A DNA stretch of 64,000 nt, taken from an uncultured Candidatus Saccharibacteria bacterium (GTDB lineage: Bacteria > Patescibacteriota > Minisyncoccia > Phycocordibacterales > UBA2100). Position 1 is the first letter of the stretch, and each line of letters begins with the position of its first letter. Location: the NCBI GenBank assembly GCA_964434285.1, contig CAYSUJ010000001.1:304564-368563 (forward strand). The letters run 5' to 3'. Shown one piece after another: positions 3-61,040 of this stretch. The notes under the pieces were generated by a model, which worked only from the letters and a program-made list of their open reading frames with translations, had not been told where the DNA came from and did not search any database. The position numbers and the translations under genes were made by a program.

Positions 3-1532
3 ACGGCATTCGAGGGCGTCATTTCGTTCACGGTCATGATTGTGGGTGGTGCGCTCTTCGGACTCATCGTCGGCGGCGGTTTTTCGAAAATGATCGGCTG
101 GGCACGCTCCAGCGAGTCTGTATCCATTACGCTAACGCTTGTACTGGCTCACGTCACATTCCTGCTTTCAGAGTACATCTCCCACCACGCGCATATCGGT
201 AACTTCGAGGTCCACCTCTCAGCTATCACCGCAACAACGGTCGCTGCGATGGTCCTCGGTAATTACGGAAAGACAAAAATGCCTCTTCGTGCCGAGGAGT
301 TCGTGGAGAAGTTCTGGGGGCAGATGGCATTTCTTGCAAATTCGATCATCTTTGTCTTGATCGGAATGCTCGCGACGTCGCTTCCCTTTTCCTCCCCGGA
401 ACTTTTTGGACCTATCGTTATCGCCGTTCTCGTTGTCGCAGCGTCGCGCGCACTTTCCATTTATCCCGTCGTCGCGGGGTGGAACGCGTTTGCGCATGAG
501 GCGCGGCATATACCCCGCGCGTGGCAGCATCTGCTCGCGTGGGGATCTCTCCGAGGCGCACTCGCGGTCACTATGGCACTCCTCATTCCTACAACGCTCA
601 CCCTTCCCGAGTGGCAGCACGCTATGCCTATTTCCGAGGCTCTCCTCGCATTCACGACCGGGTGTATTTTCGTAACACTTTTCTTCAAAGCGACGACGAT
701 CGGCCCCTTGATGCATCGTCTTCGTGTCGGTCGCTTGAGTGAGATAGAAACGGCAGAATACGACGAGGCACGAGCGCTCGTGTATGCGCGCGTCCTCGCG
801 CGTCTCGCACGCTTTTTCGAAAAGAAATACATCCCCGAAGCGACATACAATGCCCTCCGGAATCACTACGAGGACCGCTTGCGGGTTTCGAGTGAAGAAT
901 GTGCGCAGGCCGGACGTGATGAAGCACTTGCCGAAGCCGCACTTCGCGTGTGGGTCTTGGGCATCGAGAAGGAGTCCTTAAAAGACCTTCTCCTCCACGG
1001 CGAAGTTTCAGAGCGCGTCTACAAGCGCATTGCGCACAAGCTTACGGTGCGCACCGAAGACGCGGAACGATATCTCAACTCGTCCGATATTCATATCAAC
1101 CACGCCGACGATATCTTTGAAAAAGCGGCGAGCATAGTGCGACGTCTCCTCGGAAGAGAGCCCGCCCCGCATGATCGCCTTGCAGAGGAATATATGTACT
1201 ACCGCGCCCTTGTTATCATCGCACACAAAGTCGAAAAGGAATTGTCTCGAATTAAGAGTGCTCGCTACGAGGGAGTATTCACCAAGACAACTCTCGAGAA
1301 CACCGAAGCAATTTACACAAGATTCAAGGCCGATGCGCGCGAAAAGATGGAGGCGGCTGAGAAGAAGGATCCGCAAACGACACAGGCACTCGCCACGCGC
1401 CTCGCTCATTGCGGCGTCCTCAAGGTGGAGGAGTATGTTCTTGACGACCTGCTCGAGCACGAAATGATCACGCCGAAAGTACGCGTGGCACTTGAAGAAG
1501 AGCTAGCGCGTGAGATCCGCGCACTCGCCTAG
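3..1532 (+). CDS. Na+/H+ antiporter (CPA1/NhaP-like) with C-terminal cytoplasmic domain; 5'-partial, the reading frame is open to the window edge
   Basis: Multi-TM N-terminal half (GGFSKMIGW..., LIGMLATSLPF...) typical of CPA1 exchangers, followed by about 250 aa of charged soluble domain. The frame continues upstream of the first ATG with no stop. Confidence 0.55.
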   Translation, partial: TAFEGVISFTVMIVGGALFGLIVGGGFSKMIGWARSSESVSITLTLVLAHVTFLLSEYISHHAHIGNFEVHLSAITATTVAAMVLGNYGKTKMPLRAEEFVEKFWGQMAFLANSIIFVLIGMLATSLPFSSPELFGPIVIAVLVVAASRALSIYPVVAGWNAFAHEARHIPRAWQHLLAWGSLRGALAVTMALLIPTTLTLPEWQHAMPISEALLAFTTGCIFVTLFFKATTIGPLMHRLRVGRLSEIETAEYDEARALVYARVLARLARFFEKKYIPEATYNALRNHYEDRLRVSSEECAQAGRDEALAEAALRVWVLGIEKESLKDLLLHGEVSERVYKRIAHKLTVRTEDAERYLNSSDIHINHADDIFEKAASIVRRLLGREPAPHDRLAEEYMYYRALVIIAHKVEKELSRIKSARYEGVFTKTTLENTEAIYTRFKADAREKMEAAEKKDPQTTQALATRLAHCGVLKVEEYVLDDLLEHEMITPKVRVALEEELAREIRALA

Positions 1533-5580: not shown

Positions 5581-5632
5581 TTTACCCTCGCAGAGCTGAT
5601 GGAGCATAATCGTCCGTCCGAAAACTAGCAAA

Positions 5633-5676
5633 GAACCGCTCGCCCCTTTCGGGACGAGCGGTTCTTCTCTTTTCCA
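5633..5676. terminator. GC-rich hairpin terminator with T-rich tracts on both sides, likely bidirectional
   Basis: gaaccgctcgccc-ctttc-gggacgagcggttc followed by ttctcttttcc on the + strand. On the - strand the reverse complement is followed by UUUGCUAGUUUU. Confidence 0.55.
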
Positions 5677-5701
5677 ACTACTACCACGAGGGGTGCAAGA
5701 C

Positions 5702-5804
5702 GGGAGGCAAAAATGTCTCACGAGGGACCCCGCAGCTGGCGAGGATGAGCCTGATTTGCAAGCATGCAAATCAGGTCTGCCCGAGGGAGAGATTTTTGCC
5801 TCCC
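5702..5804. repeat. nested-hairpin structured repeat, copy 1; second copy at 46034-46142
   Basis: Outer 18-bp stem gggaggcaaaaatgtctc/gagagatttttgcctccc. Conserved junction ACGAGGGACCCCGCAGCTGGCGAGGAT. Inner hairpin cctgatttgca-agc-tgcaaatcagg. Conserved CCCGAGGGAG. Between copies the stems are wholly different while the junctions are identical. Confidence 0.6.
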
Positions 5805-5815
5805 GCGAGCACCCC

Positions 5816-8800
5816 TTATCCAACCTTCTCCTCCTCCACCGGCGCCATCGCAGCTTCTGCCGCAGCGAGCTCATTCTGGAGCGCGGTAATCATCTCGTTC
5901 TTCTTGGAGCCTTTGTAGCCGGTTCCAGCCGGGATAAGGCGACCAATGATGACATTCTCCTTAAGACCAACCAGCCTATCCACAGAGCCAGAAACTGCCG
6001 CCTCTGCGAGCTTACGCGGCGTGTTCTGGAAGGAGATTGCCGAGAGGAATGACGCACGCGTGAGCGAGACTTCAGTGATACCGAGGAGCAGCTGTTTGCC
6101 TTTTGCAGGCTCCTTGCCCTCATCCTTCATCACTTTGTTGATGCGCTCGAACTCGAAGTCGGCAACGATTTCGCCTGCGGAGATGCCCGTGTCGCCCGAA
6201 TGCGTGACGGAGATACGGCTAAACATCTGCTTAACGATTATTTCCAAGTGCTTACGCGCAGTAGAGACACCCTGCAGCTCGTAGATGCGCGTAATTTCAG
6301 CGATCACATAATCCTGAGCACGCTCCTTACCTGCGAGCAAGAAGAGTTCATCGAGGTCTGCCGAACCATCCGTGAGGAAGTCGCCCTTCTTTACCGAATC
6401 CCCTGCCTTCACGAGCAGTGTACGAGCTGGAGGAATGCGATATTCGGTATCGCGCTTTGTCGATTTGCCCGTATCTGGCGTGATGATGAGCACCGTTTCC
6501 ATGCCATCCTTCGCGATGTCGGTAATGACGCCGTCGACGCGTGCAATAGCTGCGGGAGACTTCGGCATGCGCGTTTCGAAGACTTCTTCAACGCGCGGGA
6601 GACCCATGGTGATGTCACCGCCTGCTGTCGCCACACCGCCGGTGTGGAACGTACGCATGGTGAGCTGAGTACCCGGTTCACCGATAGCCTGTGCGGCAAC
6701 GACTCCGACAGCTTCCCCAAGATCAATAAGCTGACCGTTGGAGAGGTCAACGCCATAACACTTCTGACAGACACCACGCGCCACCTTACAGGTGATCGGT
6801 GATCGTACGAGTGCCTGCGCAGCGTCCGAAGCTTCGATTGCTCTTGCATCATCACGAGAGAGTAGTGTATTGCGCTTAAAGTTTACACCAGTTGCTTCAA
6901 TCGTCTCAGCGAGGACGCGGCCTGCAAGACGTCCAGCGAACGAATCGCCGAGCTCTTCCTTACCGGGGCGGGCAATGAGAATGCCCTCCTTTGTGCCACA
7001 ATCTTCCTCGAGCACCACAACGTCGTGTGCGACATCGAAGAGACGGCGCGTGAGATACCCTGCGCGTGCCGTGTTCAAGGCGGTGTCGGCGAGACCCTTA
7101 CGCGCACCGTGTGTTGAGGTGAAGTATTCGATTGGTGTGAGACCCTCCTTGAGAGAAGAGAGAATCGGGAATTCAATGACTTCTCCACGCGGGTTCGTGA
7201 TGAGACCCTTCATGCCTGCCATCTGGTGCAGCTGCACAACGGAACCACGAGCGCCAGAGGTGATCATGTTATGCACCGGACCCTTCGGATCCAGTGCTTC
7301 CACAACATGCTTGCGAAGTTCGCCGGATGCCTTTGCCCAGATCTCGATCGTTGCGCGTCGGCGCTCCTCGTCGGTAAGAAGACCGTTTTCGTAGTTTTCT
7401 CGCTCCTTCGCCACAGCTTCCTTCGCTTCGTCGACGAGTCCGTCTTTCATTTCAGGAACGTGGACGTCAGAGATTGACCACGTGATTCCCGCATGTGTTG
7501 CATACTTGAATCCGAAGTTCTTGATCTTGTCGATGATCGCTGGAATGCCGTCGAGCGAGTAGTGCGTCACGAGTTCGTGCACGAGTGCACCCATCTTCTT
7601 GTTCGTGATCTCGTCATTGAAGTACGGGAAGTCGCTCGGGAGTACAGAGTTGAAGAGGAGGCGCCCGACAGATGTCTCGAACGGCTTCCCCTCGAATCGC
7701 GCGTACTTCTTGTTTTCGGTCGGAAGAACCCAAATCTTGGCCCTGAGATCAACTGCACCAAAGTCGTGTGCGGTGATAGCCGCATTCGTCGAAGGATATG
7801 TCGTACCCTCGCCCTTTGAGCCGTCGATCATTCGAGTCATCCAGTAGCACCCAAGCACAATGTCGAGGAGCTTCGAAGCAACAACGACATCGCCCGAACC
7901 CGGCTTCAAGACGTTCTTGTTTGCCGACATGATCTTTGCTGCTTCCATTTGCGACTCTTCAGAGAGTGGCACGTGAATCGCCATCGCATCGCCGTCGAAG
8001 TCTGCGTTGTATGCAGGACAGACAAGCGGGTGGATCTGAAGCGCATTACCTTCGGTGAGCACTGGACGGAATGCCTGAATTGATTGGCGGTGAAGTGTCG
8101 GTGCGCGGTTCAAGAGCACGTGCTTACCCTTAATTGCTTCTTCGAGAATGGGCCAAACTTCCGGTGCCTCGTCTTCGATGAGACGACCCGCGCCACGAAT
8201 ATTGTATGCGTGTTCGCGCTGGAGGAGACCCTGAATCACAAACGGGCGGAACAACTCAAGTGCCATATGCTTCGGCACGCCGCACTCATCGAGCGCGAGG
8301 TGAGGCCCAACGACGATGACGGATCGACCTGAGTAGTCGACGCGCTTACCAAGAAGGTTCTGGCGGAGATACCCGTGCTTGCCCTTCAAGTAATCGGCAA
8401 GCGATTTGAGAGCACGGCGGCGTCCACCAAGAACGCCAAGGACACCTGCGCCACGACGCATGGAGTTGTCCAAAAGCGCGTCCACCGCTTCCTGAAGAAT
8501 ACGCTTTTCGTTGCGGAGGATGACGTCTGGCGCATGGATCGCAAGCAAGCGCTTCAAGCGATTGTTGCGGTTGATGACACGGCGGTAGAGATCGTTAAGA
8601 TCAGACGATGCGTGACGACCACCCTCGAGGGCGACCATCGGACGAAGTGCCGGAGGCACAACGGGAAGACGCGTGAGGAACATCCACTCCGGGCGCACGC
8701 CGGCACGATGCATCGCCTGTGCGAGGGCAAGTCGCTTGCGTACCTTGTCGCGCTCAGCGGCTGGGGCTTTATCATACTCAGCGGAAACATTTTGAATGAA

Positions 8801-9508
8801 TGCTGCAAGATCGAGCTTCTTCAAAATATTGTAGAGTGCCTCAGGACCGATTGCTGCGCGGAACATTGCACCGTATTTAACGGCGAAGAGGTGGTACGCC
8901 GCCTCATCGAGAACAGACCCTTCTACGATCGACTCGATATCCTTCTTTGCTTTTTGCGCGAGATCTTTAAGACGCGTCTTTTCTTCTGCCGTTGCTGACT
9001 TCTGCTTCATTTGGTACTCGTTCTCAAGGTCCTTCAAAAGGCGCGTACGCTCCGTCTCGTCAACCGACGTCACGATGTAGCCCGCAAAGTAGACGACTTT
9101 CTCAACTTCAGCTGAAGACAAACCAAGAAGAAGTGCAATGCGCGACGGAATGCCGCGAAGGAACCAAATGTGCGCGACCGGTGTCGCGAGATCAATGTGC
9201 CCCATGCGCTCACGGCGCACGATAGCGCGAGTAATTTCTACACCACACTTTTCGCAGACGATGCCGCGAAAGCGGATACCGCGGTATTTGCCGCAATAGC
9301 ATTCGTAATCCTTTTCAGGCCCGAAAACGCGCTCATCGAAGAGACCGTTCTTTTCCGGACGCTGTGTTCGGTAGTTGATCGTCTCTGGCTTTGTAATTTC
9401 GCCGTGTGACCATTCCTGGATGCGATCAGGGGAAGCGAGGCGCATTTCAATCGCCTCGAACTCCTGCGGGATCGAATCTTTTGTGCGGCGCTGTGTGTTT
9501 GTGCTCAT
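5816..9508 (-). CDS. rpoC: DNA-directed RNA polymerase beta' subunit
   Basis: Zn-binding [24 protein letters not shown] at the N-terminus, NADFDGD catalytic motif, 1230 aa. Confidence 0.95.
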
Positions 9509-19402: not shown

Positions 19403-22400
19403 CCATGGAAAATCCATTCCTAAAGCGCATCGAAGACCATTTGGATAGAATGCGCCAAGTCACCGCAAAAAACATGCTATCACAGGCACCAGCTGCAGAA
19501 GTGAAGCCTGTACGGCCCACGAACCCTCTTTTTGCAAATGCTCGCCCGCGCTCAATACACGAACCAACTCCTATAGAAGCGGCTGGGTTAGCTCATGCAC
19601 GAGAACAAGTCCAAAGCGCTCTCGAGAGCATTGCTCAAGATCCTCATTTTGTCGCTGAAGCTCTTGATCGTGCCCGCGCGACAATCGGTGTTCTTCCGAA
19701 GGATGATACTTTCAACGCAACCCAATTTGAGCAATATGGTAAACAACTCTCAGAGTTCCTCGCGACAAGCGATACCTCAAGTGAGGAAAAGAAAGTAATG
19801 GTTGAAGAGTGCGTTGCAGCAATCGCGACCGGGCAAGGCCTCGATTCTTTGCCCGATAACCTTGCAGCTCGATTCTTAAGCTCGCAAGGCGCGCTCACGA
19901 AGGAGGTGCTCCGGGCAGAAATGACACTTGAGGCACAGGATGAGATAACGAAACCTAATCCGCACGCGTACGCGGCGCGAGCTGCGCTAGTGTTTGGTGC
20001 CGCAGCGGGGAGTCTTCTTCTTGAGGTGGGCACGACGAAAACTGCGCTCATTCAGCTTATTGATATCTACGATCCGCCTGGAATAAAACAACTCGCATCT
20101 TTAATCGCGTCTCAGCTTGAATCATTCGGCTACGACAAACTTTCATCCGTATCCGCAGCTCGTCTCGGAGTTGCTTCGACCATCGCAGGAGGTATCGGAG
20201 GAACTCTCCTCGCAACAAAAGGTCTTAAAAAGTTAGGTCCGAAGGGGAAGGCGGCGATGTACACATCTCTTGGCGCTTCTCTCGGTCTAGGCTATCTCGC
20301 TCTTCAAAATTTCGTCGCCGATAACGCCGCTGTCGCTGAAATGGGGAAAGTGATATCAAGTGAATACAAGCCCATTGCTGAACAAGGACTCTCGGCGAAA
20401 GAAAAGCGACTTGCTGCTATCGAGAAAGCAAAACAGGCAGTGCTCGCTACCCTCGAGCAAGAGAGGAACCGCCCGGGCGCCACGGGATACGGGCACTTTG
20501 CAGCGTTTCTTGATCAGGGCCTCTCAGGAAAATACGATGCAGGCTCGTTTAAATCAGGCGCACCCCAAAAACACGCCGCACTCCAGGAATCGCTTAAGAA
20601 CTTGCGAGTAAAATATTTCCGCTCCGATGCCTTGGGCAACGGTTTGTTATCACTCCTAACTGGTGTGGATAATATTGATCTCACTACTGCCCCAGAAAGC
20701 GCCAAAGCTTTGGTAGCTATTGGTGAGGCCGCGGGGCAAACTAATTTATGGAGTGGGCTTGGGAAAGTTTTAAATCCCGTTGGAGGTGTCACGACACCAA
20801 CTGCCATGTACCAACAAGCCTCGTCTGTAACAGAAGCTTTTCGCGTAATGTTGAAGGCAGATCAAGAAAAAATGAATCGTGTTGCTAGTGGTGCCTCGGA
20901 TTGGCTTGATACCATGATTAAGGCTGCGGGAACTCAAGGAGCGGATGCAAAGCTAATTGCCTCGTTGCGCGATCTCAAGGCAACACTGGGTGCAAACCTC
21001 CGACCACTCGACGCGAGCGAAGGGACGATTACGGCGGCACTCGGAAAGTTGCCCAAACCGACGGGCAAATGGGTCGTCAGAGTTGGAGACACGGAGTTCG
21101 CGCAAATGCAAAAGACACTTGAAGGTACATTCTTCCAAACCGTTTTTGGGTTTGACCTTGTTAAGGACGATTCGTATAGAGCCTTTTACCGCGGCGGAAT
21201 CATCGGACTCCTGTTACTCTTCTTCCTGACTATTAACTACGGCTCCAAGCTCGGGACGAATGCACTATATAAACGTCGTGAGAATGAATTTGAAGGATCC
21301 TTGCAAGATGGAAGTAACGAGCTGAATGAAAAAGAAAGCACGCTTGCCTCAGGAATCGCGCGCTTTCTATTCGAAGCAAACAAGGAATTCGTTACTGCAT
21401 CACGATCACCTGAGTTGGCCGCGGTATTACCCGAGTCCGTTCTAACCATGTACGTACGTAGACGGTTGCGCGAGATGTTTTTAGAGGAACAACAAGCTGA
21501 ATCGCCTGACGACCTTGTGAGCAAGAATGATTCGTGGTCATGGCTTGTTCACGGGATCGTCTTCACTCGGACCCCTGACGATGTGCGCACATTTCTAGCA
21601 TACGCTAATTGGCTTGAAAAATTGACGAAAGACCTCGATACATCAAAAGGTGGTGAAAAACTTCAAGCGGTTGTCGGCGCCATATTCCCATCCTTTGATG
21701 CAGTCGTAAAAGCACGGCACGAATCCCAAAAACCGGGCGTAGATAAACCCGAAAAAATACGAGCGTTTAAGAACGAGCTACGAAAGTTACGCAAACAACA
21801 ACTTGAGAGCCTATATATTGCGCTCTCGGATCGCATCAAGGTGATTGAAAGCACTGAAAGCGCAACAGCTGAGAAACCACTGCGAGGAACCCCTCGACTG
21901 CGGCTCGATATCGACAACACCCGAACGATCGTGGAACCAGAACTCGTAATGCGAGCACTTTCTCACAGCCAGCACTCAAGTGAGTTAGAAGAAATTAGCG
22001 AAACATTACGCTATATCGAAAGCTTGGGCATTAAGCCTGACGCGAGCACTCGAGATGATCTCCGCATTGGACGATTCGATCTCGGACCTGTATTTGCCAT
22101 CCGCAATGAACTCCAGAGAATACGAGTGGCGAGTGCACTGGGAATTCCGGACGCAACTGGACAAAAGGAGGATTTTGAGCGATTTGATGCATATATGGCA
22201 GAAATCGCTGTATCTCTCAGAGAAGCGCGCGATGCGTCGCTTAAACAAGAAGCACTCCTCAGCCCGTATACGCCTGTTTTTGATTGGGAAGAGGGCGCAA
22301 AAGGCAAATTTACCGTACGAATCAGTCTGCACCCCGATACTGAGAGAATTGAAGATCCCGTGGCATCAATCACCTTCCCGGGCACAATACCCGATTTCGC

Positions 22401-26205: not shown

Positions 26206-26921
26206 ACCATGTAGGACACGCCGTGTCCTACATTTCGATCCTTATACTCTCCTCTGTAAGTGAAGGCGTATTGATCAGGGCTGCAATTTCGATGCGTTGG
26301 TTTTTTGCGCTCCCTAGGAGCGCTTTTAGAACACGATTATCGATGACTGAAGGGAAATTTCTCTCACCCATATAATCAAGATAACTACTCCATCGATACT
26401 CATGGAGGTACGCAAGAGCATCCGACACCTTTTTTACATTTCCCTGTCTCCATTCGGGCATCGAAAAATCCAGTGGGTTAAGGTGTATGTAGTATGGTAT
26501 GTAGTTGAAATGCGCATCGCGCTGAAGGTGTATTTTTTTAAAGACACCCTGCCAAAGCACGCCACTACGCGAATACTTTTCGTTGAAATATTTTGCATAT
26601 CCCATGCCTAACTTTTGAGCAAAACGAGAAACATACACCGCATCGTCATCGACCGGAGAAAGAAGGAGGTGGTAATGATTGTCCATCAGACACCATGCAT
26701 GAATGTGCACGAGGCGTTTATGATTTCTATCTCTACGCTCTCGCACATGTCTATGGGCCACTATTTTCTGATTATTAAGTTCATACAAGTCGCTTACGAA
26801 TCGAGCCCGATCCCCATCGTCGAGCACAATTTTTCTTTTTTCTACGCCCCTGTTGAGAATGTGATAAAAATCCATGATTCACTTAACTGTACCATGTAGG
26901 ACACGCCGTGTCCTACATGGT
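26206..26921. mobile_element. IS200/IS605-like (RAYT-like) unit: a Y1 HUH transposase gene bounded by identical perfect palindromes
   Basis: accatgtaggacacgccgtgtcctacat at 26206-26233 and the same sequence extended to a 31-bp palindrome at 26891-26921. The tnp stop codon lies inside the left palindrome. Confidence 0.7.
26228..26875 (-). CDS. Y1 (HUH) tyrosine transposase, IS200/RAYT family
   Basis: FYHILNRG N-terminus, HUH motif HAWCLMDNHYHLLL, and a downstream Tyr-containing YRWSSY region; 215 aa. Confidence 0.75.
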   Translation of the reverse strand: MDFYHILNRGVEKRKIVLDDGDRARFVSDLYELNNQKIVAHRHVRERRDRNHKRLVHIHAWCLMDNHYHLLLSPVDDDAVYVSRFAQKLGMGYAKYFNEKYSRSGVLWQGVFKKIHLQRDAHFNYIPYYIHLNPLDFSMPEWRQGNVKKVSDALAYLHEYRWSSYLDYMGERNFPSVIDNRVLKALLGSAKNQRIEIAALINTPSLTEESIRIEM

Positions 26922-26953
26922 CGAGGCAAGCGCCGCCTTATATAATCCTCGAC

Positions 26954-32575: not shown

Positions 32576-32697
32576 AGATGTTTGTAGGGATTAGTAATAT
32601 CTGTACTCTGCTTCGGAAACGGCCGCTTTGCAAGCTTTTGCAAAGCGGCCGTCCCGTTTCACTTTTGGAGCGGCCGCGAGGCCTTTCGGGCGGCGGC

Positions 32698-45212: not shown

Positions 45213-46022
45213 TTAAAATTGATTGACGAACCGCAGATCAGCAGAGTGCATAAGACGAATATCGTCAATTCCCCAGCGAAGCATGGCGAGGCGATCGAGC
45301 CCCATACCGAAGGCAAAGCCATGATACTTTTCCGAGTCGATCCCGGCATTTTTGAGCACATTGGGATGTATCATCCCCGCACCCATCATTTCAATCCACT
45401 TGTCACGAAGTTTCTCGGGAACGTGTTCGCCCACGAGACGCATATCCACCTCGACCGACGGCTCAGTAAACGGGAAGAAGCTTGGGCGAAATCGAATCTC
45501 AACCGATGCGCCTTTAAAAAGTTCCTTGAAAAATCGTTCAAGCGTTCCCTTCAGGTGCGCCATCGTAATGTCTTCGCCGACGGCAAACCCCTCGATTTGG
45601 AAAAACTCCGCCTCGTGCGTCATATCGGTTGCTTCGTTTCGGAAGACTTTCCCGGGCACGATGACGCGATACGGTGGCATAACGCCTTTTTTCACTTGTT
45701 CCTCCATATAGCGGATTTGTACCGGTGAGGTGTGCGTGCGAAGAACTTTCCCCGGTTCGTCCTTGATGAAAAAGGTATCCTGCATGTCGCGAGCTGGGTG
45801 GTTTTTCGGCACATTGAGCGCATCGAAATTATGCCACTCGTCTTCGAGGAGTGGCCCCTCCGCAAACACGAATCCCATACGGGAGAATATGTGATTTGCC
45901 TCACGGATGAGGCTTGAGATGGGGTGTATGTGCCCTCGTTGCATACACGAGAGTATACCCCCACACTTATTTTCCTGAAAGAAAATAAATGTGGGGGGTA
46001 TAGCGTTTCCTTCTCCAGCCAC
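45213..46022 (-). CDS. pheS: phenylalanyl-tRNA synthetase alpha subunit (catalytic core only)
   Basis: Class II motifs FFQIEGFAV and GFAFGMGLDRLAMLRWGIDDIRL. Confidence 0.85.
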   Translation of the reverse strand: MAGEGNAIPPTFIFFQENKCGGILSCMQRGHIHPISSLIREANHIFSRMGFVFAEGPLLEDEWHNFDALNVPKNHPARDMQDTFFIKDEPGKVLRTHTSPVQIRYMEEQVKKGVMPPYRVIVPGKVFRNEATDMTHEAEFFQIEGFAVGEDITMAHLKGTLERFFKELFKGASVEIRFRPSFFPFTEPSVEVDMRLVGEHVPEKLRDKWIEMMGAGMIHPNVLKNAGIDSEKYHGFAFGMGLDRLAMLRWGIDDIRLMHSADLRFVNQF

Positions 46023-46033
46023 TAACCAACTGA

Positions 46034-46142
46034 GAGAAATGCGGGGAGTACCTCACGAGAGGCCCCGCAGCTGGCGAGGATCTGCCCGTTTTTCAAGCTT
46101 GAAAAACGGGTTTACCCGAGGGAGGTACTCCCCGCATTTCTC
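46034..46142. repeat. nested-hairpin structured repeat, copy 2, in the 12-nt-spaced leader of pheS
   Basis: Outer 21-bp stem gagaaatgcggggagtacctc/gaggtactccccgcatttctc; conserved ACGAGAGGCCCCGCAGCTGGCGAGGAT; inner hairpin cccgtttttcaagc/gcttgaaaaacggg; conserved CCCGAGGGAG. Confidence 0.6.
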
Positions 46143-46145
46143 CCA

Positions 46146-46970
46146 CTACAACCCCCCCACTTCGTAAAGTGCTTCCCCGGATTTGATGATGAGTGCCCCG
46201 TCAATAATGCGCATGTCCGTTTTTTCTGCACCATAGATTTGAGCAGCGATTGGCGTCGCACGAATATCAATCTCAGCAAAATAAATGCCGCCCTCTTTCG
46301 TGCGGTAGACGACACCACTTCCAAAGAAGCGCGCATCAATCGCCTCGCCCCCGAATCGCTTTATCGAAACCTCAGATTCGCAGAGAGACGGACTCGGACA
46401 AAAAGCGGCCGGCGGTTGTCCGTCTTCCGTCCAACGTGCGAGCACGTCACCGTCTTCAAGGACAAGCGTCACACCGCCTCGCTCGTCGAGCGGCAGTGTT
46501 GTGGTGGCCGTTGATGTCGCAAAGGCAGCGCGCATAGTTGTGTTCAGTGCCTCCGACACAATGCGCGTCCCGGTCGCAGAACCCGAAAGAACGAGCTCGG
46601 TGAGCGTTATTTCTTCAGGAAGCAACACGGCGTCGGCACTCGTGACGAGCTGCGGCTCGACGATGAGTATTCTTCTCCATGGTCGCGCTCCGTCTCGCTC
46701 AACCCGAACCGCATACGCGGCAGGAGCAAGATCATCGACGTAAAACGAGCGCTGAAGAAAACCAGTCTCACCAATCCGTTCGTCGTCGACAATAACGCGC
46801 GCATCAGGGTATGGCACCGAAATGTAAATACCGCCCGTTTTTACGATTCCGACGCCCGGTTCGAAACGCCATCCATCCGCATAGAAAATCGTAATGGGAA
46901 GACCAACGACAAAAATCAGCGAGAATACAGTGAGATACAAACGACGGCGAGAGCGTGGGAGAGGTTCCAT
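46146..46970 (-). CDS. membrane-anchored hypothetical protein. The likely start is the ATG at 46970; the ORF track extends to 47012
   Basis: N-terminal TM LYLTVFSLIFVVGLPITIFY then a soluble domain; directly downstream of the GT2 gene. Confidence 0.45.
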   Translation of the reverse strand: MEPLPRSRRRLYLTVFSLIFVVGLPITIFYADGWRFEPGVGIVKTGGIYISVPYPDARVIVDDERIGETGFLQRSFYVDDLAPAAYAVRVERDGARPWRRILIVEPQLVTSADAVLLPEEITLTELVLSGSATGTRIVSEALNTTMRAAFATSTATTTLPLDERGGVTLVLEDGDVLARWTEDGQPPAAFCPSPSLCESEVSIKRFGGEAIDARFFGSGVVYRTKEGGIYFAEIDIRATPIAAQIYGAEKTDMRIIDGALIIKSGEALYEVGGL

Positions 46971-46971
46971 A

Positions 46972-48555
46972 CTATGTGCTCGCACGACTCTTCGGCGTGA
47001 CCCAAAAACCAAGATAGCGTCCGGTCATGAGGCGGAACTGCGATTCAAGCCCGGGAATAGAGCTAAAAATGATCATGGTGAACGGTACGAGTATCCACTG
47101 TAACACCATGAGCGCGTGGCGGTATCGCGGTATGTGCGCAGGGCGTTCAGGTAATAGGTACATGCAAATAGCGGCAGAAACAACGAGACCAAACATCGCA
47201 AGCGTGAGAAACGAACGAGCAATGAGAGGCAAATTGTGTGAGAGAACCGTCGTATTGAAGGCGGTACCCCCGACAAGGAGCGGGAGCCATCCGACGGAGA
47301 AGAGAATGATTGGGTGTGTCGCGAGTGACCAAAATCCCTCGATTTGTACGAGCGATGCGCGGATACGCTTACCGAGTGGTATTCGCTTGTTTTTATAACT
47401 CACCCAGAGGATGTAGGCGATGTTTTCTGCGCCATAGGTCCAGCGGCGGTGCTGCTTGTAAATATTCTTTACGGTACCCAGGAAGGTAGGAGCAACATTT
47501 GCATCCATGGACACCGGATATGCCATCGGAACAACGTGGTAGTCGCCGTCGAAGCGCGCAAACATATTCCAAAAAATGCGCGAATCTTCGGAAACAACAT
47601 TGCGCTGCCAATAACCGGCCTCGTGGAGAGATTTAAAAATGACTGCGTGCGATGAAAAGGTGGCCAGCTTCTCCGGGCGCTCTTGCTGTATCATCTGCCA
47701 AAAAGAACTTGAGTATGCGATGACACGAGAAAGCAACGGCGCCTCCCAGATGTTGTTGTGATACAGGGGGACCGGCTGAAATGACGTGCGCTCAGGGTTC
47801 GGAGAGGAGAGCACATGCCAGGTGAGGCACGCGAAATACTGTGGGTACACCACCGTGTCGGAATCAAACGCAGAGACAACCACGTGTTCATAGGGAAGAC
47901 TGTGCTTGTCGAGTATGTATTTTCGGGCTTCTTCCGCCGCGTAGGAGAGGTTTGATCCCTTCCCCGGAATGTCACCCGGAAGGCCGTCCGGATGAACAGT
48001 CACGAGAATGTCGAGGAAGCGGTCCGCGTATTCTTCCTGCAAACGTCGCGCAGTTGCATGATGCTCCTCACCTGCACGTGCTTCTGCCGCAATCACGACC
48101 GCGATAGTTTTCGGATCCCAGTCGGCGTGAGCGAGCGCGTCGATCGATTCCTTCAAGACCTCATACGGCTCGTCATAAAAGGGAAACATGACGAGGTGGA
48201 TAAGGTACGGCTCAGCGCGTGCAGGCACATGCGGCAGATCGTGTAATCTCTCGCGCCAGTTCACCTGCATGTTGTGACGCATGCGTTTGAAGTTGTAACG
48301 CAAGTGTACCGAGAGATAGGCAGTTTTAAAGAGCCAGTACGCAGCAAAGACAATCGTGAGATATGCCGCCCACACGGGCTTGCGAAACGAGAGGAAGATG
48401 AGGATGGCGAGGGTCCCGTAAGACAGGACGCCAGGTAGTATCTCAAAGGCTCTGAAGAGCATACGCTCGCGACCGATGAGATCAGTCGCGCGAGCGATGT
48501 GGAGATAGGAGTATTCTGAAGGAAGTTGGGAGCTGGAAGTGTGTAGCTCTTTCAT
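46972..48555 (-). CDS. family-2 glycosyltransferase, processive membrane type (CesA/NodC-like)
   Basis: DSD DxD motif, QHRRWTYGAE (QxxRW) motif and multiple TM helices at both ends. Confidence 0.7.
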   Translation of the reverse strand: MKELHTSSSQLPSEYSYLHIARATDLIGRERMLFRAFEILPGVLSYGTLAILIFLSFRKPVWAAYLTIVFAAYWLFKTAYLSVHLRYNFKRMRHNMQVNWRERLHDLPHVPARAEPYLIHLVMFPFYDEPYEVLKESIDALAHADWDPKTIAVVIAAEARAGEEHHATARRLQEEYADRFLDILVTVHPDGLPGDIPGKGSNLSYAAEEARKYILDKHSLPYEHVVVSAFDSDTVVYPQYFACLTWHVLSSPNPERTSFQPVPLYHNNIWEAPLLSRVIAYSSSFWQMIQQERPEKLATFSSHAVIFKSLHEAGYWQRNVVSEDSRIFWNMFARFDGDYHVVPMAYPVSMDANVAPTFLGTVKNIYKQHRRWTYGAENIAYILWVSYKNKRIPLGKRIRASLVQIEGFWSLATHPIILFSVGWLPLLVGGTAFNTTVLSHNLPLIARSFLTLAMFGLVVSAAICMYLLPERPAHIPRYRHALMVLQWILVPFTMIIFSSIPGLESQFRLMTGRYLGFWVTPKSRAST

Positions 48556-48573
48556 ACTGTCATTATAACCCTG

Positions 48574-48646
48574 AGCCGCCTCCCGGACTTGAACCGGGGA
48601 CCTTCTCTTTACAAAAGAGTTGCTCTACCAACTGAGCTAAGGCGGC
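48574..48646 (-). tRNA. tRNA-Thr (anticodon UGU)
   Basis: Reverse complement GCCGCCTTAGCTCAGTTGGTAGAGCAACTCTTTTGTAAAGAGAAGGTCCCCGGTTCAAGTCCGGGAGGCGGCT. 7-bp acceptor stem, GTTCAAGTCC T-arm, anticodon loop UUUGUAA. No encoded CCA. Confidence 0.85.
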
Positions 48647-49643: not shown

Positions 49644-49755
49644 AGATAAAAATGTTCAATTATCAATTTACAATGCTCAATCAATGATCAACGTCCTAAT
49701 TTTCAATAGAGCAAGTGTACCACTCTTTTGAAAATTGATAATTGGTCATTGAAAA

Positions 49756-60948: not shown

Positions 60949-61040
60949 GGAGAGGTGGCTGAGTGGTCGAAAGCGGCACGGTGCTAACGTGTTAGGCGGG
61001 TAAAACTGTCTCCAGGGTTCGAATCCCTGCCTCTCCGCCA
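60949..61040 (+). tRNA. tRNA-Ser (anticodon GCU) with a long variable arm and encoded CCA
   Basis: GGAGAGG acceptor stem, anticodon loop GUGCUAA, about 20-nt variable arm, GGTTCGAATCC T-arm, CCA. Confidence 0.85.

Follow-up and report, generated by a model that had tools for sequence, protein, structure and literature searches.

Modular hairpin repeats with a variable stem and exchangeable caps downstream of core genes in bacteria of the Candidate Phyla Radiation

Introduction

Several families of structured repeats have been described in bacterial genomes. ERIC (IRU), Correia (NEMIS), BOX and RUP elements are 100–200 nucleotides (nt) long, consist of one long hairpin and are dispersed in transcribed intergenic or 3′ untranslated region (3′-UTR) space, and their presence varies between relatives. 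RNase E or RNase III cleaves the hairpins of ERIC and Correia elements, with an effect on how stable the flanking mRNA is. REP/BIME and REPIN sequences, which RAYT (Y1 HUH) transposases mobilise, are extragenic palindromes found just after stop codons; REP/BIME sequences are transcribed and stabilise the upstream mRNA, and the folded hairpin is recognised and cleaved at short CT-containing motifs by its foot. Here we describe a family of hairpin elements that resembles ERIC-type elements in size, in its single long hairpin, in its dispersal and in its varying presence, and REPs in its position after stop codons. Two of its members lie in a stretch of 64,000 nt from an uncultured Candidatus Saccharibacteria bacterium (Patescibacteriota; GenBank assembly GCA_964434285.1, contig CAYSUJ010000001.1, positions 304,564 to 368,563), hereafter called the window; positions below are those of the window.

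The genomes of the Patescibacteria, or Candidate Phyla Radiation (CPR), are tiny and are thought to be poor in repetitive or regulatory non-coding DNA. To our knowledge, almost nothing is known about CPR RNA biology. An earlier note, made from the sequence of the window, had drawn attention to the two elements as nested hairpins with covarying stems and invariant junctions, and had proposed that they are a ribozyme- or riboswitch-like RNA or a protein-recognised element. We find that they belong to a hairpin family for which neither Rfam 15 nor the literature that could be searched yielded a description. The family behaves as a dispersed repeat: it has been copied to unrelated loci, it has been lost in close relatives, and its apical module has been swapped on a stem base that was kept. 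In kind it is closest to the ERIC, Correia and REP-type structured repeats, with inverted conservation and exchangeable caps. The reading that we favour, and to which we give an even chance, is that these are modular dispersed hairpin repeats of a CPR clade, which act as co-transcribed 3′-UTR hairpins in mRNA stability or processing and spread at the DNA level.

Results

Two copies of one element in the window

Copy 1 (5690–5815) and copy 2 (46031–46145) are each about 105–120 nt long and are read in the minus-strand sense; both were found again when the sequence was re-read. The 19-mer CCCCGCAGCTGGCGAGGAT occurs exactly twice in the 64 kb (5728–5746 and 46063–46081), where 0.02 occurrences are expected by chance. 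The 27-mers at 5720–5746 and 46055–46081 differ at two positions, and the word CCCGAGGGAG is present in both copies (5780–5789 and 46116–46125), which bears out the two shared segments that had been reported. In an inverted-repeat scan the copies are the two longest spaced inverted repeats of the window; the arms of copy 1 (5701–5726 and 5780–5805) are 85% complementary and those of copy 2 (46031–46054 and 46122–46145) 96%. The folding energies of both copies, on either strand, have z values of −6.5 to −9.8 relative to shuffled controls. The stem of copy 1 lies 9 nt from the TAA of rpoC (5816–5818, minus strand), while that of copy 2 directly adjoins (0 nt) the TAG of an open reading frame (ORF) of 288 amino acids (46146–46148, minus strand), so both are indeed within 15 nt of a minus-strand stop codon. 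No further copies were found in the window by a covariance model at E≤10, the pattern CCTCRGG...CCCTCG, a scan for the basal motif, or the inverted-repeat scan.

Both copies fold into an outer stem (P1) that carries a cap, which consists of a 4×4 pyrimidine internal loop (CCUC/UCGU) above P1 and a three-way junction on a 3-bp helix (P1a, GGG/CCC). The outer stems had been described as different in sequence and yet perfectly paired. The arms do differ (P1 identity between the two copies is 0.43) and pairing is kept, but copy 1 has one C·C mismatch. The inner hairpin (P2) had been called entirely different, with 11 and 14 bp. In fact both copies have 11 bp and a loop of 4 nt here, with eight of the 11 positions unchanged and compensatory pairs at the other three. 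The conserved 27-mer, which had been taken for an unpaired joiner, holds a third hairpin (P3), CCUCGC-CAGCU-GCGGGG on the minus strand.

Relatives in other genomes

Exact-word scans and a covariance model yielded about 30 relatives in all, every one of them in a metagenome-assembled genome (MAG) of Patescibacteria (Kaiserbacteria/Paceibacteria-like). An exact 18-mer scan, covering one genome per species for 185,579 species, returned 48 loci. Seven are true homologues, all in Patescibacteria MAGs (Paceibacterota, Kaiserbacteria, Minisyncoccia); the remaining 41, chance matches within genes in high-G+C genomes, were discarded. Metagenomes, scanned with a 23-mer, gave 11 additional loci. The covariance-model check suggested in the earlier note was also run: model R1 recovered 18 distinct close copies (type A below) and, when applied to rpoC-orthologous loci from related genomes, divergent members as well (loci outside the window are numbered here with the prefix L), while in the window it found the two copies only. 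The RpoC of the window is 100% identical to one NCBI protein and 80–95% identical to many Kaiserbacteria proteins.

Searches for a known family were negative. At the gathering threshold, Rfam 15 matches only two tRNAs in the whole window and nothing in 127 kb of related loci. At E≤10 the two copies have only chance matches of the miRNA-hairpin type, far below gathering, and at E≤5 an element of the type called D below has no meaningful match. The earlier note had recognised no hammerhead, twister, SRP, RNase P, tmRNA or 6S consensus, and Rfam likewise assigns no family, either at gathering or at E≤10; its twister-sister, pistol, hatchet and riboswitch families are covered by this result. There is no tRNA-like or tmRNA fold at the copies, and ARAGORN reports only a tRNA-Thr (48573–48646) and a tRNA-Ser (60949–61040) in the window. 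The 18-mer scan had no matches in viral contigs, and copy 1 had none in a blastn search of 50,697 phage and 72,556 plasmid records. Searches of the literature on structured RNAs, ribozymes and palindromic repeats of the CPR turned up no such element, only tRNA group I introns and TIGR-Tas arrays.

A conserved foot, a free stem and exchangeable apical modules

The most widely shared feature of the family is the foot motif 5′-CGCUC¦GCGG...CCGU¦CUCGCU-3′, which is carried by about 20 of 27 elements and recurs across types. The unit consists of this motif, a P1 of 18–45 bp in which pairing alone is kept, and an exchangeable apical module, with a total length of 105–225 nt. Four types of apical module, A–D, were distinguished, 67–190 nt in length. 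Both window loci are copies of type A1; in subfamily A2, UUCCGGG...CCCUCCA stands in place of CCCUCGGG...CCCUCGU. Type B (L062, L065, L063 after rpoD and L067 after a PDDEXK gene) has a different P2 and P3, and type C (L063, L067 and L069 after rpoC, L071 after the PDDEXK gene) has a different, larger interior. Type D (L045, L058, and L071 after rpoC) is type B with an insertion of about 110 nt, around which there is a CUCA...CUCA pair. Variants of ERIC, Correia, BOX and RUP elements likewise arise by internal insertion at fixed points. The element of L070 has no internal loop at all. Since L063, L067 and contig Ga0163153_10000193 carry two or three types each, the cap does not co-evolve as one type per lineage, and the idea of a single, lineage-specific cap type per genome was rejected.

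We also observed a conserved domain of about 110 nt in type B-like caps, UUGCGCGACCCCGCCUCG...CCGGCCUUGCGACGGGG.CCC.ACCCC.UCUCAC, with CUCA direct repeats at its edges and no Rfam match. It is located at L045 7006–7206 (minus strand), L058 1151–1350 (minus), L071 13714–13918 (plus) and in part of L069 13704–13925.

In pairwise comparisons of the 18 type A copies, P1 has a mean identity of 0.54 (minimum 0.21), and the core segments left free by the search have one of 0.65–0.90. The identity of 1.00 in P3 was fixed by the search words; P3 and P1a are invariant within type A because these words required them. Residues that are invariant without being forced in this way are C25, GGG, A30, A32, the GCU of the P2 loop, C59 and U63. 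Across types both helices covary. P3 reads CUCUCGC...GCGAGAG in type B, where the sense U·G has become U-A and one C-G has become U-A, and the P1a of type A, GGG/CCC, corresponds to GGGUC/GACCC in type B and GAAC/GUUC in type C. The earlier note had considered the junctions invariant, and had named non-conserved junctions in additional copies as the observation that would speak against its reading. Once more copies are compared this is what is seen: positions 22–24 of J1, as well as J2/3 and J3, vary among the 18 close copies, and distant relatives have other cores.

Dispersal and turnover

Besides the two copies in the window, there are at least three in MAG H52-bin124_1 and four on contig Ga0163153_10000193 or close to it. 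Subfamily A2 was recently amplified: over about 135 nt its units keep an identity of at least 93% at unrelated loci, both within one MAG and in others. The family thus has the properties of a dispersed repeat, namely near-identical copies at unrelated loci and a presence or absence that differs between relatives. The defining feature of miniature inverted-repeat transposable elements (MITEs), terminal inverted repeats that are conserved between copies, is not found, the inner arms within A2 being a partial exception.

Turnover can be followed at the site downstream of rpoC. The gene order smc-rpsP-khpA-trmD-rpoB-rpoC-dnaG-rpoD is conserved across the Kaiserbacteria-like relatives, with rpoBC not preceded by rplJL. 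After rpoC the window has type A, L062 and L065 have type B, L063, L067 and L069 type C and L071 type D, and L068, L070 and L072 have no element. In the closest relative (L060/L061, rpoC 95% identical) the site reads ...GACUCG-CCUUUCUG-UCUCG..., followed by the same terminator as in the window; the flanks have stayed, but the hairpin is missing. The hairpin foot is flanked by CUC(G) direct repeats, and L060/L061 retains both of them, 8 nt apart, so this site resembles an internal deletion and not a virgin site. Stem sequences are shared between elements with different caps. The window and L063 have the stem base CGGGAGGCA in common, L065 (type B) and L067 (type C) have the P1 sequence GCGGCAGCGGGGCA.AUGC in common, and at the site after the PDDEXK gene CGGGUGG is common to L067 (type B) and L071 (type C).

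Position relative to genes and terminators

About 20 elements are located on the sense strand with their foot 0–25 nt after the stop codon of the upstream gene. The upstream genes include rpoC, rpoD, nusG (three times) and those encoding a KH protein (khpA-like), a PDDEXK protein, Ddl, an S41 peptidase, a peptidoglycan-hydrolase-like protein and an FtsB-like protein. In L059 (about 900–925, minus strand) the ddl frame extends into the element, which supplies its stop codon; the foot motif and the beginning of P1 are read as the final codons, UCU CGC GGG UAG. The possibility of a readthrough or recoding signal was examined and rejected; the extensions GVLAGGKNLSLGQT and WEKCGEYLPRVNPFFKLEKRADPRQLRGLS, each running to a stop, are unrelated, and the shared core is read in different frames.

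A canonical intrinsic terminator with a 17-bp stem, a GAAA loop and a U-rich tail (5630–5667, minus strand) follows copy 1 at a distance of about 25 nt and is kept after rpoC in L060, L063, L065 and L067. This places copy 1 inside the rpoC 3′ UTR and shows that it is not the terminator itself; judged from the sequence, it is almost certainly transcribed as part of that UTR. That the elements are a lineage-specific terminator, possibly a bidirectional one, is very unlikely. Their position is typical of terminators, A2 relatives have runs of A and of U on either strand at the base of the stem, and in L063 a type B element occupies the place after rpoD where relatives have canonical terminators. 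Neither window copy, however, is followed by a U-tract, and a consensus scan finds no terminator at the foot of either element; the sole call inside copy 1 (5734–5719) matches 6 bp within P3/J3 and does not involve the stem of the element itself. A separate, conserved terminator follows copy 1 as well as its orthologues, and most genes of the window end with ordinary short terminators. For the window copies, the missing U-tract and the separate terminator led us to reject this reading. The earlier note was therefore right to set these elements apart from canonical terminators and classical REPs, as the window copies have no U-tract, and the family has no GTAG foot and a length of 105–225 nt.

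Pairing in the stems and the folding strand

In type A (18 distinct copies), 95.3% of cells are standard pairs, compared with 78.9% for shuffled sequences and 38–52% when the partners are slid. Double-sided changes are found at 14 of 14 pairs in P1 and at seven of 11 in P2, 21 pairs in all. The orthologous elements after nusG in L028 and L051 differ at seven of 20 P1 pairs, and all seven differences are compensated. The statement that compensatory change maintains the stems thus stands. Twelve of the 18 type A copies have a mismatch (mostly A·C or C·A, but also C·C and U·U) 5–7 bp below the top internal loop. This hot spot corresponds to P1 pairs 15–17 of alignment A4 and includes the C·C of copy 1 at about 5791/5715, although the stems are otherwise unrelated. 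We rejected a possible kissing interaction of the P2 loop (AGCU) with the P3 loop (CAGCU), since no matching change is seen in type B or in copies whose loop is UGCU or CUGC.

The mismatches were also examined for the strand on which the element might fold. In the upper P1 and P2 of type A there are 19–20 mismatches, all of them A·C on the sense strand, and no G·U. Over the whole of P1 in all types, the sense strand has 20 G·U (11 of them the basal G·U) and 17 A·C. With no preference for G·U, the covariation could reflect either hairpin-templated correction of the DNA or selection on RNA. The A·C bias in a 14-bp model had suggested the antisense strand as the functional one, but this bias is gone over whole stems and all types. 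We regard an antisense small RNA gene on the plus strand of the window as highly improbable. Read on the antisense strand, the A·C mismatches of the upper P1 and P2 are G·U pairs, and the internal loops are purine-rich (ACGA/GAGG) and allow tandem G·A pairs. In addition, the minimum free energy of type A2 copies is 7–18 kcal/mol better on this strand. On the other hand, the asymmetry disappears over the whole of P1, P3 would hold a C·A mismatch, type A1 folds better on the sense strand, and no promoter-like plus-strand site is present next to either copy.

Layout of the two window copies

Copy 1 begins directly after the rpoC ORF (5816–9508, minus strand; Pfam RNA_pol_Rpb1_1-5). Read along the minus strand, its 5′ basal flank GGGGUGCUC (5807–5815), the ...GCUC side of the family motif, contains GGGGUGC, which pairs with 5690–5696. 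The 5′ arm of P1, GCGGGAGGCAAAAAUCUCUC (5787–5806), was defined, as was the 3′ arm, by the fold and the inverted-repeat scan. It is followed at 5780–5786 by the 5′ strands of the top internal loop (CCUC, 5783–5786) and of P1a (GGG, 5780–5782), and then by a 4-nt joiner, CAGA (5776–5779). P2 (5750–5775) is an 11-bp hairpin with the loop UGCU. The joiner CUCAU (5745–5749) leads to P3 (5728–5744), which has one U·G pair. The segment 5720–5727 comprises the joiner U (5727), the 3′ strand of P1a (CCC, 5724–5726) and that of the top internal loop (UCGU, 5720–5723). The 3′ arm of P1, GAGACAUUUUUGCCUCCCGU (5700–5719), and the 3′ basal flank CUUGCACCCC (5690–5699) complete the element; where the family motif has CUCGCU in this flank, copy 1 has CUUGCA.

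Copy 2, also on the minus strand, follows the 288-amino-acid ORF (46146–47012), which has no Pfam match and whose TAG adjoins P1. The P1 arms (5′, 46122–46145; 3′, 46031–46054) are without the basal motif CGCUC/CUCGCU. The segment 46111–46121 holds the top loop CCUC (46118–46121), the GGG of P1a (46115–46117) and the joiner UAAA (46111–46114). P2 (46085–46110), again of 11 bp but with the loop AGCU, is a perfect 26-nt palindrome. After the joiner CAGAU (46080–46084), P3 (46063–46079) has the same sequence as in copy 1, and the joiner C, the P1a 3′ strand CUC and the 3′ strand UCGU of the top loop occupy 46055–46062.

Other hairpins and neighbouring genes

Several other structures were seen in the window and at related loci. 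Between copy 2 and pheS there are two hairpins on the minus strand (45925–46010), CCCCCCACAUUUAUUUUC-UUUCAG-GAAAAUAAGUGUGGGGG and UAUACUCUCGUGUAUGCAACGAGGGCACAUACACCCC, which have no Rfam match at E≤10 and may be a pheS leader. A perfect 15-bp hairpin, ACGGCCGCUUUGCAA nnnn UUGCAAAGCGGCCGU, follows a gene end at 32619–32652; its upper stem and loop resemble P2, and the covariance model matches it weakly (14.9 bits). A near-perfect 24-nt palindrome with 1-nt spacing (26882–26930), between a minus-strand ORF ending at 26878 and a plus-strand ORF starting at 26900, looks like an operator. Long A+T-rich inverted repeats of the AAUUUUCAAU... and GUAUCAA... types recur in intergenic spacers of the relatives (rpoB-rpoC and after rpsP). 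They are located at window positions 49651–49750 and at L070 9920–10000, L065 4094–4186, L063 4529–4626 and L069 3618–3696, and look like additional hairpin-repeat families. Directly after rpoD in L070, on the opposite strand, there is a gene for a reverse transcriptase of 526 amino acids (RVT_1; 19693–21273).

Discussion

The present family departs from its closest described counterparts mainly in what is conserved. In ERIC- and Correia-type families the terminal inverted-repeat arms are conserved, whereas here the arms are free (mean identity 0.54) and it is the foot and the cap that are conserved; the taxon, CPR, is also a different one, and no TA-type target duplication is seen. The REP/RAYT cleavage at CT-containing foot motifs is comparable to the CUC¦G...U¦CUC of the present family. 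REPs, however, are about 35 nt long, with a conserved stem, a GTAG foot and hundreds of copies, while the elements described here have no GTAG, a variable stem and a large, asymmetric cap. No RAYT/Y1_Tnp gene (PF01797) is present among the called genes of L060–L072, which are genome fragments. The intervening sequences and RNase III stems of rRNA also combine a long stem with sporadic, variable apical cargo at a fixed site that differs between strains, but they lie inside rRNA helices, whereas our elements follow protein-coding genes and their cleavage is putative.

Integron attC sites share a conserved foot, a stem of which only the structure is kept, a variable and sometimes branched tip, and a location 3′ of ORFs. 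An attC-like recombination site would account for this architecture and for the mostly fixed orientation after ORFs. Nevertheless, it is the most improbable of the explanations that we considered. There is no R″/R′ consensus, and neither strand of the sequences contains RYYYAAC/GTTRRRY cores, the feet being GCUCG/UCUCGC. The elements accompany housekeeping genes in conserved synteny, not cassettes, and no integrase gene is nearby.

The evidence fits a REP- or MITE-like structured repeat better than a riboswitch or a ribozyme. If the elements act as RNA, each would form a very stable 3′-UTR hairpin that could be a barrier to 3′ exonucleases, a processing site for double-strand-specific RNases, or both, as is the case for REP, ERIC and Correia sequences. 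The conserved cap might serve as a protein-binding or folding module. Spread and homogenisation would proceed at the DNA level, either by mobilisation in trans or by template switching or gene conversion between copies.

Several observations weigh against this reading. Four elements are not oriented as 3′-UTR hairpins: that of L053/54 is antisense, with AlaRS on the other strand and its stop codon adjoining the 3′ arm; that of L004 is antisense, with MurJ and SNase on the other strand; that of L050 is antisense, with a SET and a DUF2878-like gene on the other strand; and that of L055 lies between the divergent YqeY and RmuC genes, upstream of a likely promoter. Sense orientation is moreover confounded with replication direction, because 30 of the 38 long ORFs of the window are on the minus strand. 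The similar numbers of A·C and G·U in P1 are usually not to be expected of an RNA helix selected on one strand. The stem arms differ between copies, unlike those of MITEs and REPs, and no transposase or partner protein was found at the related loci with Pfam-listed genes. Finally, while repeat behaviour and position can be observed directly, we infer the RNA role from position only.

A second explanation, which we consider possible but rather less than likely, is a purely DNA-level selfish palindrome. The folded single-stranded DNA hairpin would be cut at the CTC motifs of its foot by a trans-acting HUH/Y1 enzyme (of the RAYT or IS200/IS605 type) or a similar one, and the complementarity of the stem would come from hairpin-templated repair or template switching and not from selection on RNA. 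Such an element would be consistent with the lack of a preference for G·U over A·C on either strand, the direct CUC(G) repeats at the foot and the CUCA...CUCA around the type D insertion. The same is true of the presence or absence among close relatives, the apical swaps and the amplification of A2, as well as of the antisense and divergent-intergenic copies; the orientation bias could stem from the replication strand. However, no Y1/HUH or other transposase is found among the Pfam-listed genes in about 350 kb of related loci, and the variable arms are as unlike REP and REPIN ends as they are unlike those of MITEs. The "empty" site of L060 keeps both flank motifs and so provides no evidence of a clean target-site duplication. 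The asymmetric, conserved cap and the tight spacing to the stop codon would also be left unexplained.

A third explanation, which we regard as distinctly unlikely, assigns the function to the three-way-junction cap as an RNA: a new self-cleaving ribozyme, a riboregulator that binds a ligand or a protein, or a small RNA that cleavage in P1 would set free from the 3′ UTR. Variable, covarying helices around a junction with some invariant nucleotides are also a feature of the hammerhead ribozyme and the purine riboswitch, and in type A several junction and loop nucleotides are invariant without being forced by the search. The position after rpoC is almost certainly a transcribed one, the many genomic contexts are typical of small self-cleaving ribozymes, and the long P1 would be a good substrate for double-strand-specific RNases. 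The core consensus of those two RNAs is nevertheless absent, no Rfam ribozyme or riboswitch matches even at E≤10, and the elements are 3′ and not 5′ of genes. Unrelated-looking modules are exchanged at orthologous sites, the internal loop is missing in L070, the loops of P2 and P3 show no kissing covariation, and P3 and part of J3 are invariant only through the search words. The ribozyme- or riboswitch-like RNA of the earlier note is not supported by a multi-copy element that follows unrelated genes, is gained and lost, swaps its apex, has four antisense or divergent cases, one of them in a promoter region, and shows no preference for G·U. A protein-recognised element, the other possibility raised in that note, is possible.

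In a further reading, the foot and the structure-only stem after stop codons would be a landing or processing scaffold, and caps A–D would be functional RNAs exchanged as cassettes; the caps might, for example, represent a new class of self-cleaving ribozyme, or small RNAs that stem cleavage sets free from 3′ UTRs. We think this distinctly unlikely.

Whatever their mode of action, the elements invert the usual logic of palindromic repeats: conservation falls on the foot and the cap and not on the stem, which varies freely, and caps can be exchanged. Extrapolating from 1–2 copies per 24–64 kb sampled, the family may reach tens of copies per genome of about 1 Mb. If it acts as RNA, as we favour, the 3′ ends of core transcripts (such as rpoBC, rpoD and nusG) would be shaped in a manner specific to this lineage. 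Action as DNA would point to a new hairpin-recognising mobilisation or gene-conversion mechanism in CPR bacteria. In either case, the elements are a marker of strain-level variation in these uncultured organisms.

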